NCBI GenBank assembly: GCA_039024555.1
Contig: JBCCQQ010000014.1
Span: 1-64,000 of the forward strand
Reading direction: 5' to 3'
Length of the DNA: 64,000 nt
From: Cyanobacteria bacterium P01_D01_bin.156
GTDB lineage: Bacteria > Cyanobacteriota > Cyanobacteriia > Phormidesmidales > Phormidesmidaceae
How positions within the stretch are numbered: the first letter of the stretch is position 1; each line of letters opens with the position of its first letter. Under the pieces are notes generated by a model that was not told the origin of the DNA, searched no databases, and saw nothing but the letters and a program-made list of their open reading frames with translations. Below, piece by piece: positions 39,208 to 44,093 of the stretch. The position numbers were made by a program, and so were the translations under genes.

Positions 39208-41406
39208 ATGACAGGTTCAGAAGCTTTATTTTTAGCTGCATTATCTGGATTGACTAGCATCATAACAGACGTCATCAAGGACACAGGGACTGGAATTGTC
39301 AAAAAAATAGATATCAGTCTAAATGTCTCAAGAAAGCGAATAATCGAGAGATATGTAAGGCATTACTTGCAATATTATGGTGGACTAAAAGTATCTTGTC
39401 TGGGGATAAATGAGCCTATTGACCTTGAGAAGGTTTATGTTAGTCCAAAGGTTTTTGGTCGTTCTATAAAAGATTATCAGTCTAGAGAAGATGTAGAAAA
39501 TGATTTTTTGGCTACTTTGAATTATGGTTCTGGCAAATCATCGGTAGCTACAAGCAATGCAATTGATGTAGCTAATGAGAATCAGTTTTTAATGATTTTG
39601 GGAGGCCCAGGAAGTGGAAAATCAGTCTTTTTGAGAAAACTTGGACTGGAAGCTCTTAAGGGAGGGAAAGGGCCTTATAAGCAGAAGTGTTGGCCAGTTT
39701 TAATTGAACTTAGGTCTTTTGACGGAGAGTCAGGTTCTCTTGAGAAGATGATAGCCAAGGAATTTGTCGGTCACCTTGAGTTGGATGATGCTTATAATCT
39801 GGTGCGAGGGCTATTAGAAAAGGGCAAGTTGTTGATCTTACTGGATGGTATAGATGAGATACCTCTTAATGGGAAAAGGTTTGTTCTTAGTGAGATAGAG
39901 AGGTTTATTAAGGATTATGGCAATAATCGTTTTGTAGCTTCTTGTAGAGAGGCTGCATACACCTTTAGGACAGAGTTTAGGTTGTTCAAGGATGTTGTCA
40001 TGGCGTCATTTGAGGATGATCAAATTCGGGATTATATCAACCGTTGGTTTGAGTATTCAAAGTCTGGCCATACAGAAGAAGAACGTGCAGAGATGGCTCG
40101 GGAATGCCGGAGATTAATAGGAGTAAGAGGACAAGAGCATGTTCAGCAGTTAGCCAGAACACCTTTACTTTTGACTTTGCTCTGCTCAGTTTATGAGAAA
40201 AATCTTAATTTCCCAAAAAATAAATCGCTTCTGATTTCCCGTGCACTGTCTGTGGTTATGCAGGATTGGGTGAAGGGCAGATCTGTTGAGTATTCTCAGG
40301 AGCATAAGTTTTTAGATCCAGACCTTCAGGAGGATTTGCTGTCGGATATCGCTTATTCCCAATTTGAAGAAGGCAATATTGTTTTTTATCGAAACAACAT
40401 ACTGGAAGTCTTTTTGGAAGGTATTGAAGGTAATCGAAATGCTTCAAAGTCTCTAAATGGGGAATCGGTTTTACAGATTACAGAGGTCCAGCAAGGCATT
40501 CTTGTTAAGCTATATCCAAAGATTTATTCCTTTTCTCATTTTACATTACAAGAGTATTTTGTTGCGCGGTACATCGTTGACAATGAAGAGTTGAATGAAC
40601 TTATCTCATCGTATCTTTTTGTGGAGAGATGGAGGGAGGTTTTTGTCTTGGCCTCAGGATTAATAAGAGGGAGGAAAAATCCTGAGTTTTTTTTGTTTTC
40701 TATAAAAGATGAATTGAATAAATACTACGAACAGCATGAGTTAGAGGGCGTAGTTCATTTCTCTAATTCACTTGTTTCTTCCGATCATTCAGATTATCTC
40801 TATGCAGGTAAGTTAGCTGCATTCGTATATATCATAAGAACGTTTCTGGCCTTGGCTCGTTTTGAAATTGAATTTGATGCGCTTAAGGATCCCTTGTGTT
40901 TAAGAGCTTTACATTTAAGCTCTTCTCTCGGGCTTTTCCCAAATCCTGATGATTTTGTTGCTTTTGGGTTTATATTAGATGCCTTGTTTCATTTTGCCAT
41001 TCTTAAGAGCGATTTACCTTCCATGAAGGGAGTAAGACTCCGTGGTACTTCTTATAGGGTTAATGCTACATGTGAAAATGCATTTAAGAGGATGGAGTAT
41101 TTGGAAGAGATAGGAATTTTTAATCCGCGGAGCATCTTGAATATAAAAAAAATAATGCAGCATTATGGAGATGAAAACTTTCCTGTACCTCCAGACGAGA
41201 ATAGCAAAAAGAAGCTTATTTATGAAATCTTAAGTTTATATCTCAAGGCTTTAGGCATAAATAAATCGGTGTTAAAGATAGTGGCTATAAAGAATGACTC
41301 TTTAGGTGCCTTCTTCTATGGAACAGACTTGCTTGTATGTTGTATGAAAGCATCTGCACGCATTTCTCCTGATGTATGGGATGAGCTTAGTACTCAGCTC
41401 ATTTAA
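39208..41406 (+). CDS. NACHT-family STAND NTPase
   Basis: Walker A GGPGSGKS, Walker B LILLDGIDE, TPLLLTLLC, FSHFTLQEYF and RWREVF motifs; visibly AT-rich. Confidence 0.9.
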   Translation: MTGSEALFLAALSGLTSIITDVIKDTGTGIVKKIDISLNVSRKRIIERYVRHYLQYYGGLKVSCLGINEPIDLEKVYVSPKVFGRSIKDYQSREDVENDFLATLNYGSGKSSVATSNAIDVANENQFLMILGGPGSGKSVFLRKLGLEALKGGKGPYKQKCWPVLIELRSFDGESGSLEKMIAKEFVGHLELDDAYNLVRGLLEKGKLLILLDGIDEIPLNGKRFVLSEIERFIKDYGNNRFVASCREAAYTFRTEFRLFKDVVMASFEDDQIRDYINRWFEYSKSGHTEEERAEMARECRRLIGVRGQEHVQQLARTPLLLTLLCSVYEKNLNFPKNKSLLISRALSVVMQDWVKGRSVEYSQEHKFLDPDLQEDLLSDIAYSQFEEGNIVFYRNNILEVFLEGIEGNRNASKSLNGESVLQITEVQQGILVKLYPKIYSFSHFTLQEYFVARYIVDNEELNELISSYLFVERWREVFVLASGLIRGRKNPEFFLFSIKDELNKYYEQHELEGVVHFSNSLVSSDHSDYLYAGKLAAFVYIIRTFLALARFEIEFDALKDPLCLRALHLSSSLGLFPNPDDFVAFGFILDALFHFAILKSDLPSMKGVRLRGTSYRVNATCENAFKRMEYLEEIGIFNPRSILNIKKIMQHYGDENFPVPPDENSKKKLIYEILSLYLKALGINKSVLKIVAIKNDSLGAFFYGTDLLVCCMKASARISPDVWDELSTQLI

Positions 41407-41738: not shown

Positions 41739-43097
41739 CTATTCAGAGGTGTGTGCTAACTCTTTAGGAAGTCGAGTAGCCCTTAAAATCAACCATGCGG
41801 AGCCCATAAACCAAAGGGCTGCAATAATAAACGCCGTTCTCATCACTCCGCCAATATAACCTCTCAGGTCTTGAACATAGCTCGCGGTATAGGCCAAGGA
41901 AATGGCACCTACAAGATTATTGTTAGAGTCTCGAATCGGCGCGTAGATGTAGTAAAACCAATCATCAAAGACATTATTAAAACGGCGCTGAGACCTTGTA
42001 ATCTCAGTTTGGAGACCATCTAGCTGTGCTTGACCAGAGGCATCAACCACCTGCCGAAAGGCATAGCCTGCGCCTGGTTTTAAATCTCGAGCAATGTCCC
42101 CGATAATTTCTATCTGGCGAGGATTTTGGGAGCGGATGTAGGTTTCAGGGTAAGCATCGGGCACGAGTACATGAATTGTGTTGAGCCACTGCTGATGCTT
42201 TTGATAAAGAGGGTTGTTTTGGTAGTAAGCGGCATTGTTTGGCGGAAACTGTGCCAGCTTGGCAAATTCATCCCCATCAATCCCCTGGACAGCGGTATTT
42301 AAGGTGGTTGCCATGTCCGCAGCGATCTCTCTTCTCACATGACCACTGAGGGATAAATCGATGGCCAGGAGCCCCAAACTAATAAAGATTAAGTTAGCGA
42401 TGACCGTTGTTAGAACCACCAGATACTTGGCTTTTTGACGCGATCGCACAATCGCCTCATTGGCATCCAAGCTTGCCCCAACATAGTCCGCATGAACGTC
42501 TGTCGGTCTTGGATCCTTATTGACTCCCTGGGTCAGCCATTGTCCGGCTTCTTTTAGATCGCGGCCCCGCAGTAAGTAGCTAGCATCGCGATGCTTAGTG
42601 TCCCATTCCAAGGCCCGTACCAACAGTCGAGTGTGGGTAGAAACATGGTCTAAATCTGTATCTAACGCCTCTAAGAGGTCTTGAAATGCCGTTTTAAGGT
42701 TGTCGGTTTCTCGAAAGAATAACCAGTTATGTCGTGAGATTGACGAATGTACTTGCTGTGGATCAAACCCCTCTCGTCGAATAATGGGAAGAAACCGTTT
42801 ATTGCACTTAGTAGCATACTCAATCTCATCGAGACACACCTTAGATGCAATGGAATCCGGAGTAACAACAAAAAGAAATGTGTCTGCGGACTCAATACCC
42901 CGTTTAATAGAGTTCCACCAATCTTCCCCTTTGCGGATATCATCCCAGTCGATCCAAGGGTCACGACCGATCTTACGAAATGCTTGCTCTAGAATTTCCA
43001 CAAACGCTTTATCCCTACGGGAATAAGAGATAAAGACATCGTTAGTGCGGCTGGACTGTTGCTTTGGGGCCTCGGCTGAAGAGGGTTGGGAAGACAT
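41739..43097 (-). CDS. TIR-domain membrane protein: TIR - helical linker - TM - Cache/PDC-like extracytoplasmic domain - TM
   Basis: DVFISYSRRD and VCLDEIEYA TIR motifs; two TM helices flanking IDGDEF...YAPIRDSNNNLVGAISL. Confidence 0.85.
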   Translation of the reverse strand: MSSQPSSAEAPKQQSSRTNDVFISYSRRDKAFVEILEQAFRKIGRDPWIDWDDIRKGEDWWNSIKRGIESADTFLFVVTPDSIASKVCLDEIEYATKCNKRFLPIIRREGFDPQQVHSSISRHNWLFFRETDNLKTAFQDLLEALDTDLDHVSTHTRLLVRALEWDTKHRDASYLLRGRDLKEAGQWLTQGVNKDPRPTDVHADYVGASLDANEAIVRSRQKAKYLVVLTTVIANLIFISLGLLAIDLSLSGHVRREIAADMATTLNTAVQGIDGDEFAKLAQFPPNNAAYYQNNPLYQKHQQWLNTIHVLVPDAYPETYIRSQNPRQIEIIGDIARDLKPGAGYAFRQVVDASGQAQLDGLQTEITRSQRRFNNVFDDWFYYIYAPIRDSNNNLVGAISLAYTASYVQDLRGYIGGVMRTAFIIAALWFMGSAWLILRATRLPKELAHTSE

Positions 43098-43118: not shown

Positions 43119-43997
43119 TTATCGTCTAGAGGGGCGACCTAATAACAACTTAGTGATAGCACTCCGCGCACTTGCTGGTCGAGGACGATTCAGCAACCAG
43201 CGTAAGGGCGGAAAGGCAATTTCGTCCGGCAGCAAGATAGCAATAAATTCGAAGGGAAGTAACAAGTATGTAGTGTTACTCTCCTGTTGGTCCGTAATGT
43301 AGCGAATACCTAAACGCAGCTGCAAACTGTAGGCTAAAGCCTGACTATCCATATCCATTAAAGGACTCGATAAGGACGCAATCACATCGCCCATATCCAC
43401 CAGGGGCATACCTGGCTGTAAGGTGCCGCTATTGGGATCCAAACTTAAACAGCCCTCTCCAGTGACGCTCGTACCAAAACTTTCGCCAGGGTTGACCACG
43501 CTAAATATTTGAGATCGCGATAGATCCCCCGCAAAGGGAACACCTGCCCGAAACACTCGCTGAGTTTGACGAGATTCATCGGTGGTAATGGAGCTATTGT
43601 CCCAGTCGATATACACTTGGGCATCTTCTGTGCCATTGTCAACAGACACACTTAAACCCGGTAGAGCCATGTTTCGGCTCATATTGCCCATGGGTCCAAC
43701 GGTAACCTTAACCTTATATATCTGTTTTGGATCGTAGGGAGAGGCGACCTTGAGCGATAGATAAGGGGGGCGCTTCAGCCCCCGAAACTCAAGTTGTTCC
43801 ACAGCAGCTGTAACTTTAGGTTGAGATGGGGATGACTGACGCTCTAACTGTTGATTGGTTTGTCCCTCTAAAAACTCACGATCCAGCTCCACCCGGACCT
43901 TATCTTCCAAGTTACTTTCTACCGCTAGGGCCATTTGGTAGAGCACATAGATCACTACCAAAAAGTAGATAGTCAAAATTAGAACGTCATTACCCAT
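43119..43997 (-). CDS. Hypothetical protein with N-terminal TM anchor
   Basis: Long ORF; TM ILTIYFLVVIYVLYQM; IDWDNSSI motif. Start placed at ATG 43997; stop is 21 nt before the TIR gene. Confidence 0.7.
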   Translation of the reverse strand: MGNDVLILTIYFLVVIYVLYQMALAVESNLEDKVRVELDREFLEGQTNQQLERQSSPSQPKVTAAVEQLEFRGLKRPPYLSLKVASPYDPKQIYKVKVTVGPMGNMSRNMALPGLSVSVDNGTEDAQVYIDWDNSSITTDESRQTQRVFRAGVPFAGDLSRSQIFSVVNPGESFGTSVTGEGCLSLDPNSGTLQPGMPLVDMGDVIASLSSPLMDMDSQALAYSLQLRLGIRYITDQQESNTTYLLLPFEFIAILLPDEIAFPPLRWLLNRPRPASARSAITKLLLGRPSRR

Positions 43998-44093
43998 GGT
44001 GTGACCTATCCACAGCCCCGTCGATATACTACTGATGACGCCAGGTGGCGCACCTTTGGCAGGATCGTCAATACTGACGTACCCCAAAGGTGC

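Follow-up and report, generated by a model that had tools for sequence, protein, structure and literature searches.

A cyanobacterial protein family that joins an enzymatic-looking TIR domain to a predicted extracytoplasmic Cache sensor

Introduction

Animal Toll-like and IL-1 receptors combine an outer sensor, a membrane helix and a cytoplasmic TIR domain, and their paralogues carry one TIR type with different outer domains. ToxR/CadC-type one-component receptors are output-first proteins, in which the signal passes through the N-proximal TM helix to a DNA-binding output. To our knowledge, the triggers of the characterised bacterial TIR enzymes act inside the cell and are phage proteins, nucleic acids or cyclic nucleotides.

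Here we analyse a 452-aa protein of Cyanobacteria bacterium P01_D01_bin.156, encoded in a window of 64,000 nucleotides (the whole stretch of DNA that was analysed; contig JBCCQQ010000014.1, positions 1 to 64,000). The chassis to which it belongs resembles the Toll-like and IL-1 receptors in having an outer sensor, a TM, an inner TIR domain and swapped outer domains. In contrast to those receptors, the 452-aa protein has the reverse domain order, two TMs, a Cache domain in place of LRR or Ig domains, and a TIR domain that looks enzymatic. We treat the likeness as an analogy and make no claim of common origin. With ToxR and CadC the protein shares an output-first topology, whereas their output is DNA binding.

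The closest described designs come from Kaur et al. 2021 (PMC8195603). Section 9 of that paper presents EACC2-caspase proteins with variable C-termini, including TM+CHASE2. Its source data hold cyanobacterial TIR+TM+CHASE2+TMs proteins, present as neighbour annotations only in three rows of one file, together with one nSTAND1+TM+CHASE2 entry, and all 13 CACHE entries there are conventional GGDEF-EAL receptors. In the text and source data covered, neither CHASE2 combination is characterised. These effector-first proteins are like the 452-aa protein in being cyanobacterial, in setting a cytoplasmic effector before a TM and an extracellular small-molecule-type domain, and in combining a constant chassis with a variable C-terminus. 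They differ in the sensor: that of the 452-aa protein, a single Cache domain flanked by two TMs, derives from HAMP kinases.

STAND and TIR conflict proteins are treated without Cache in the main text of PMC10907252 and PMC7159879. The word "Cache" is absent from the main text of these two papers, of PMC8195603 and of a Thoeris survey (bioRxiv 10.64898/2025.12.03.692087), and "TIR" is absent from that of PMC4822843. A literature search that covered mainly open-access papers and part of their supplements found no publication on TIR+Cache. The sequence-only reading that preceded this work knew of no characterised example of such a receptor. The design is less unprecedented than it had seemed, with TIR+TM+CHASE2 and nSTAND1+TM+CHASE2 on record. 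The idea of a TIR domain, a TM and an outer sensor is already recorded in uncharacterised form; the Cache form, its likely repeated origin and the split pocket were not found in print within the searches made.

Results

Domain architecture and membrane topology

The features of the 452-aa protein are collected in Table 1. Hydropathy maxima lie at aa 226-244 (2.49) and aa 422-440 (1.78), in agreement with the two TM helices and very short tail described from the letters alone, and the C-terminal tails of the 82 full proteins of the family are 7-29 aa long. The 12 residues ahead of TM1 contain on average 4.65 Lys or Arg in these 82 proteins, against 1.23 behind it. This bias places the TIR domain inside the cell, and it upholds the proposal of a cytoplasmic TIR domain and an extracytoplasmic sensor. 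A full-length AlphaFold model on the 84-row alignment (pLDDT 87.6) contains one helix, aa 200-271, that covers linker, TM1 and the start of the Cache domain.

The motifs quoted in the sequence-only reading begin at aa 87, 158, 175 and 385. The last of them, YAPI...VG, was taken to mark the end of a Cache domain. It does belong to a Cache domain, but it is not the end: it spans strands 4-5 and stops at about aa 401, and a helix then leads to TM2.

Table 1. Features of the 452-aa protein and their positions in the window
Feature	Position	Strand	Basis
Gene, 452-aa TIR-linker-TM-Cache-TM protein	41739..43097	-	ORF call; GC 47.2% vs genome 47.1%
TIR domain, aa 20-147, cytoplasmic	42657..43040	-	Pfam TIR_2 aa 21-142, E 3.6e-25; Z 16.9 to SARM1 TIR
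Glu91, candidate catalytic residue	42825..42827	-	84/84 aligned rows
Helical linker, aa 148-222; final helix continues into TM1	42432..42656	-	Common to TIR-linker-TM chassis
TM1, aa 226-246, with invariant Asn235	42360..42422	-	Hydropathy, conservation, charge bias
Single Cache/PDC domain, aa 249-412, extracytoplasmic	41862..42353	-	AlphaFold pLDDT 88.8, pTM 0.85
Presumed pocket strands 3-5, aa 373-402	41892..41981	-	Pocket assignment inferred from sequence register
TM2, aa 420-440	41778..41840	-	Hydropathy, conservation
12-aa tail, ends where HAMP of donor receptors starts	41739..41777	-	Alignment to HAMP kinase relative

The TIR domain

The TIR_2 match and the invariance of Glu91 (Table 1) bear out the earlier call of a TIR domain with an intact candidate catalytic Glu. 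The top Foldseek match is SPARTA TIR-APAZ, and the structural matches include SARM1 as well as scaffold TIRs such as MyD88. Glu91 is matched by a Glu of 8qlo_A and of 7xoz_A, chains of a SPARTA TIR-APAZ and a plant-type TIR, in both of which we take this Glu to be catalytic. By sequence and structural match, the TIR fold and the catalytic-type Glu that distinguish enzymatic (NADase) TIRs are both present, and the domain looks enzymatic. Column conservation in the 84-row alignment drops from 0.78 in the TIR domain to 0.48 in the sensor.

The TIR fold and the aligned Glu are common to the 452-aa protein, SPARTA TIR-APAZ, SARM1 and Thoeris ThsB. The 452-aa protein differs from all three in being membrane-bound with an outer sensor, its enzyme activity being putative; unlike SPARTA it has no Argonaute or APAZ part, and unlike Thoeris no adjoining thsA-type gene. 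PADLOC and NCBIfam matches are confined to the TIR part, with NCBIfam scores far below cut-offs. The PADLOC SPARTA match covers at most aa 21-170 against models of 430-443 positions, and the ThsB models likewise match the TIR part only. The Thoeris layout of a TIR gene and an effector gene in one operon was not seen, with no neighbour conserved over 15 loci, and there is no short Argonaute partner among the neighbours scanned. Atlas feature matches for the whole protein are all at most 0.80.

The sensor is a single Cache domain

Modelled alone with AlphaFold (scores in Table 1), the outer domain adopts a single Cache/PDC fold, with a PAS-like sheet and a long N-terminal helix that continues TM1, placed between two TMs. 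Leading structural matches include WalK (Z 13.0, rmsd 3.3, 138 residues aligned), DctB (Z 12.8, rmsd 3.6, 150 aligned), a formate-binding chemoreceptor (Z 12.5, rmsd 3.5, 147 aligned) and CitA (Z 12.2, rmsd 2.5, 127 aligned). Foldseek gives the same assignment, and these model-based checks confirm the Cache/PDC identity proposed earlier for the region between the TMs. In sequence the domain is distant from named families. None of the Pfam Cache families sCache_3_3, Cache_3-Cache_2 and dCache_1 scores above its curated cut-off; sub-threshold matches at aa 374-415 reach 21.5 bits against a cut-off of 28.8 and 18.3 against 27.7, and weak Pfam Cache matches occur in 18, 9 and 5 of the 84 members. 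A sensor profile searched against the sequences of solved structures gave a best E of 0.3.

The single-Cache kinases WalK, CitA and DcuS and the distal modules of DctB and Tlp3 all resemble this sensor in fold (Z 11.8-13.0, rmsd 2.5-3.9, 127-155 aligned), at a sequence identity of only about 10%. The TM-Cache-TM layout, and a dimer through TM and Cache helices (predicted here), are shared as well. In contrast to receptor kinases, the 452-aa protein has no HAMP or kinase after TM2 and its output is N-terminal; the signal must therefore exit through TM1.

The presumed ligand pocket differs between clades

The sensor core is well kept, with Tyr298, His301, Gln302, Tyr320, Gly333, Asp334 and Arg337 among the residues found in 80-83 of 84 rows. 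On strands 3-5, conventional relatives carry the motifs Tyr-x-Asp and Trp-x-Ser and then a final Asp; in the 452-aa protein, these Tyr, Asp, Ser and Asp positions are taken by Phe373, Asn375, Tyr383 and Ala402. Of the conventional rows, 116/121 have the Ser/Thr+Asp pair, as do 36/47 rows of the sister clade (fusion clade 2) and 9/12 other rows, which include three TIR-less fragments, one of them placed by the tree in clade 1. The pair is present in 0/33 rows of clade 1, home of the 452-aa protein, and in 0/4 of a small neighbour clade. Before the trees and these counts, 25 of the 242 pooled rows, with split, partial or multiple domain matches, were removed. Clade 1 has conserved residues of its own, Tyr385 and Tyr403 (33/33 each) and Arg337 (32/33), and at position 402 it has no fixed residue (Ala 11, Glu 9, Arg 4). 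Arg337 is found in 83/84 rows of the three main fusion clades versus 21/121 conventional rows, the latter including five donor-group kinases.

Two described motifs are relevant here. The dCache_1AA amino-acid sensors have a double Cache with a Y-R-W carboxyl half and a Y...D amino half, the amino-group residues of PctA being Y144/D173 (PMC8915833; motif also in PMC11237719). The dCache_1AM amine motif comprises a Ser, a terminal Asp, an upstream Arg/Asp and an aromatic pair, with S217/D235 as the Ser and Asp (PMC10589655). The pocket was brought into register with 3LIB by spacing and an indirect sequence alignment, not by residue-level superposition; by that register, the relatives' residues would fall with Y144/D173 and their Ser/Thr+Asp with S217/D235. 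The family departs from dCache_1AA in having a single module and no RxW half in the alignment, and the 452-aa protein has no final Asp; the relatives retain a Tyr...Asp pair at a spacing similar to that of dCache_1AA. The full amino-acid motif is absent from the proteins fetched for a direct register test.

Since the pair is kept in relatives and found in none of the 33 clade 1 rows, we regard an amine-type ligand as a fair lead for the sensor family, while the 452-aa protein itself would read something else, or nothing. An amino or amine group was probably part of the ancestral ligand, and clade 1, with its remodelled pocket, probably reads a different cue. Small-molecule gating is less sure in clade 1 than in the sister clade because clade 1 lacks the pocket residues of the relatives.

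Conservation, distribution and gene neighbourhood

Among the best 120 of 435 matches, 82 proteins (query included) have the TIR domain, linker, both TMs and sensor; six are partial and 32 have other C-termini. The full design recurs many times among the homologues, and the protein is no one-off chimera. Within these best 120, all full-length homologues that bear organism names are cyanobacterial. For 11 distinct pairs, with dS near saturation, dN/dS is 0.07-0.25 in the sensor and 0.04-0.23 in the TIR domain (one TIR value is undefined), and by these values the sensor is under purifying selection.

Of the order's 173 genomes, 25 have the sensor and nine the fusion, which in one of the nine is cut by a contig end. 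Some genomes have two or three fusion copies; one has three, two in tandem. None of 21 congeners was found to have the fusion; in a set of 401 genomes from across the phylum, the fetched loci (30/36 matches) show it only in this genome. The 15 homologue loci lie in housekeeping surroundings; close kin are syntenic, but beyond them no neighbour gene is shared. One subgroup (L021, L022, L023) adjoins a gene cluster that, from N-terminal sequence and general knowledge, we take to be chemotaxis-like.

Synteny breaks at the fusion gene, which has a low-GC NACHT gene as its neighbour; the three upstream genes lead to other genes in 4/4 congeners, with the fusion missing from that site. The NACHT protein (732 aa, window 39208-41406, + strand, GC 37.9% vs genome 47.1%) is encoded convergently with the fusion and has a weak PADLOC PDC-S60 match. 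On the other side lies a conserved protein (window 43119-44087, - strand) with no Pfam, PADLOC or NCBIfam match, found in 21/22 genus genomes; in the four examined (4/4) it keeps synteny with panE and a sodium:alanine symporter. An operon with the upstream gene (21-bp gap) was rejected as a conserved feature because other genes stand there in 4/4 congeners and the neighbour is at no homologue locus. A promoter scan came out near chance (8 vs 5.9).

The TIR-linker-TM chassis

We define the TIR-linker-TM chassis as a TIR domain, this linker, a TM and a variable outer domain, all of which the 452-aa protein has. Fourteen ORFs of this genome carry TIR plus the same linker, and 11 of them continue into WD40 (Pfam), usually past a TM helix. 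Of the remaining three, one is the 452-aa gene, one has TM and CHASE2 behind five TIR-linker units, and one, close to the end of a contig, stops with no outer domain. The best other ORFs are 42-49% identical to it over TIR+linker. By pattern count, 71 of 89 linker-bearing ORFs without Cache are WD40 proteins, and with the 11/14 in this genome this substantiates a linker-WD40 association that had been offered from recall. Elsewhere the chassis bears CHAT, ARC6-like IMS, TPR, NACHT or unnamed domains. A fast TIR+linker tree of 183 rows places the 85 main Cache fusions in a single clade (95) amid relatives that bear WD40, a result favoured by their having been gathered as best matches to the query. 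This placement fits the proposal that a Cache domain has replaced a WD40 repeat sensor.

The 452-aa protein has no STAND NTPase of the nSTAND1/NLR-like kind. The linker has a weak match, with a best E of 2e-4 for a nominal database size of 1000, to the helices that follow nSTAND1 NTPases, in 2/6 sensor-bearing STAND proteins and 1/3 genome ORFs. Because of this match, the chassis may be an NTPase-less form of nSTAND1 receptors.

Several chassis ORFs have further features. The TIR-CHASE2 ORF (G000:C7:14086-18615; L087, L209) encodes 1,500 aa with five tandem TIR-linker units, a TM, CHASE2 and further TMs; LSDAT (SLOG) and DUF4231/SLATT genes lie about 2.5-5 kb upstream of it. Three to five tandem TIR-linker repeats occur on five other contigs (G000:C3, C6, C57, C78, C86; L084, L085, L095, L097, L098), mostly before TM and WD40, with Cys-x-x-Glu in most repeats by pattern search. 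Four tandem TIR-linker-WD40 paralogues of about 1,000 aa have near-identical N-termini (G000:C11:64920-77636; L088-L091). The outer domains of further TIR-linker proteins (L034, P0104, P0105, P0116; L055, L082) have no Pfam match where scanned.

Origin and probable repeated recruitment of the sensor

A profile built from 23 sensors gave 3285 representative matches, 406 of them at 1e-10, of which 150 were listed and 73 scanned. Most of the 73 are TM-Cache-TM-HAMP receptors with a kinase, GGDEF-EAL or cyclase output or a short tail. Searching with the sensor region yielded no more than 19 fusions or fragments. After TM2 the fusions carry a Thr-Arg-Pro-like motif, its Pro present in 64/82, that aligns with the first HAMP residues of a kinase relative. 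In a 78-row sensor tree, five HAMP kinases fall in one group (96) with the 27 main-family sensors sampled. By these alignments and trees, the sensor and TM2 derive from a HAMP-kinase receptor, cut where HAMP begins.

The same sensor also ends a TIR-nSTAND1 protein (P0191), three nSTAND1 proteins (P0221, P0233, P0238), a triple TIR-linker protein (P0160) and a second TIR-linker group (P0212, P0235, P0251). A single origin of all 39 fusion rows was rejected (AU p 8.7e-5, for a group named after the trees had been seen); it is therefore likely, from these phylogenies, that the sensor was joined repeatedly to TIR and nSTAND1 proteins. The recruited sensors mostly retain the pocket pair. P0056 combines a main-family TIR+linker with a sensor nearer the kinase receptors (50% to P0123), which may reflect a later sensor swap.

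Among the other sensor-bearing proteins, many (P0123, P0129, P0130 and others) are Cache-HAMP receptors of 300-420 aa with a short conserved tail and no enzyme output; the tail pattern L-x-I-E-I-D occurs in 41 of 71. Seven proteins of 1,000-1,400 aa (P0155, P0196, P0200, P0201, P0239, P0253, P0255) consist of repeated TM-Cache-TM units. Some of these repeated-unit proteins carry a TrmB or MarR-like helix-turn-helix at the N-terminus, and so put the sensor to a further output-first use.

A predicted dimer and a possible signalling route

The protein is predicted to form a homodimer, with a score of 0.50 against 0.00 for the best control, agreement between runs in at least 81% of contacts and pLDDT of at least 79. 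Twenty of 30 solved pairs attain the score mark, as does 1 of 23 single chains, and the prediction may pass through likeness to solved Cache dimers. Predicted contacts are TM1-TM1', TM1-TM2' and those between Cache helices, and the invariant Asn235 touches TM2 of the other copy. No TIR residue lies in the confident interface.

We give about an even chance to the reading that this is a one-component, output-first, ligand-responsive dimeric TIR membrane receptor that would signal through TM1 to NAD+ cleavage. The N-terminal helix of Cache domains is a direct extension of TM1 (PMC4822843). In the model, a dimer held by TM1/TM2 and the Cache helices would receive an outside cue that moves Cache helix 1, which forms one unbroken helix with TM1 and the final helix of the linker. 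As HAMP is missing, the signal would exit via this helix joining Cache, TM1 and linker, and its shift could permit TIR assembly beyond the dimer, alone or with paralogues. The assembled TIRs would then cleave NAD+, with an ADP-ribose-type second messenger likelier than bulk NAD+ loss, and this messenger might be shared with the cell's other TIR-chassis receptors.

An LSDAT (SLOG) gene is present in 9/9 carrier genomes of the order versus 83/173 overall, the carriers being kin and not independent; it is also present in 21/21 congeners, none of which was found to have the fusion, which counts against a link. This genome has an LSDAT (SLOG) and SLATT-like gene pair at a distance of about 2.5 kb from its TIR-CHASE2 paralogue. 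STALD, ThsA_Macro and LD_cluster3 had no match in the genome, a result that carries no weight, since the controls matched nowhere or only below cut-off.

The receptor reading draws on the recurrence of the full design, the invariant Glu91, the sensor dN/dS, the conserved core, the continuous helix, the predicted dimer, the recruitment of the sensor and the LSDAT counts. Against it stand, as the main doubt, the absence of the pocket pair from clade 1 (33/33) and the small neighbour clade (4/4), the presence of only two TIRs per dimer, neither of them in the confident interface, and the lack of a conserved partner gene over 15 loci.

Alternative explanations

The missing pocket pair bears on the idea that the clade 1 Cache domain serves as a dimerisation clamp, or as a sensor of protein or envelope change, with the TIR domain freed when the clamp is disturbed. 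We consider this somewhat unlikely. It agrees with the loss of the pair throughout clade 1, with the bulky Tyr383 and missing Tyr-x-Asp of the 452-aa protein, and with dimer helices and TM residues that are still conserved; however, clade 1 has its own invariant residues, the varied position 402 could also mean new ligands, and the sister clade largely retains the pair. The TIR domain might instead be a docking module, making the protein a co-receptor that joins TIR-linker-WD40 receptors and tunes their assembly. Thirteen further TIR-linker ORFs in the genome, the lack of a partner gene nearby and the matches to scaffold TIRs all suit such a role, which is nevertheless improbable given that pure scaffolding does not need the invariant Glu91 and its surrounding motif.

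A dedicated anti-phage or anti-predator guard, sensing the invader at the envelope and killing the cell by NAD+ drain, also appears unlikely. SPARTA TIR-APAZ is the nearest solved TIR by Foldseek, the chassis overlaps nSTAND1 conflict proteins, the distribution is patchy, and the gene lies at a synteny break with the low-GC NACHT gene alongside. Yet homologues sit among housekeeping genes and are syntenic in close kin rather than being in defence islands, the sensor is under purifying selection, and the PADLOC and NCBIfam matches concern the TIR part only. The absence of the gene from the same site in all four congeners examined could be read as a neutral chimera or a decaying gene, as could the deviation of the 452-aa copy from the family consensus in the pocket. 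With 82 full-length proteins among the best 120, purifying selection and genomes holding two or three copies, that explanation is hardly credible, and at family level such a reading is largely refuted.

Discussion

Returning to the ligand-responsive receptor, a broader picture is tentative and, in our judgement, doubtful: filamentous cyanobacteria may hold an inverted Toll-like family in which numerous TIR-linker-TM paralogues with exchanged outer domains contribute to one NAD-derived signal, read by an unlinked SLOG-SLATT module. In it, a small molecule outside would act on Cache to turn on the TIR enzyme via TM1 alone, with the sensor regrafted repeatedly onto TIR and NLR-like (nSTAND1) proteins.

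A compact receptor of about 450 aa, its Cache domain open to ligand screening, would make it possible to test directly if an outside molecule gates TIR NAD+ cleavage across a membrane and if Cache can signal backwards through TM1, with the clades that have and lack the pocket pair as a natural control. The result would offer a handle on the much larger unstudied TIR-TM-WD40 set, which has 11 members in this genome. The design is conserved and probably arose several times, and it could reveal the way in which a bacterial TIR domain, whose activity here is putative, is turned on by a cue from outside.
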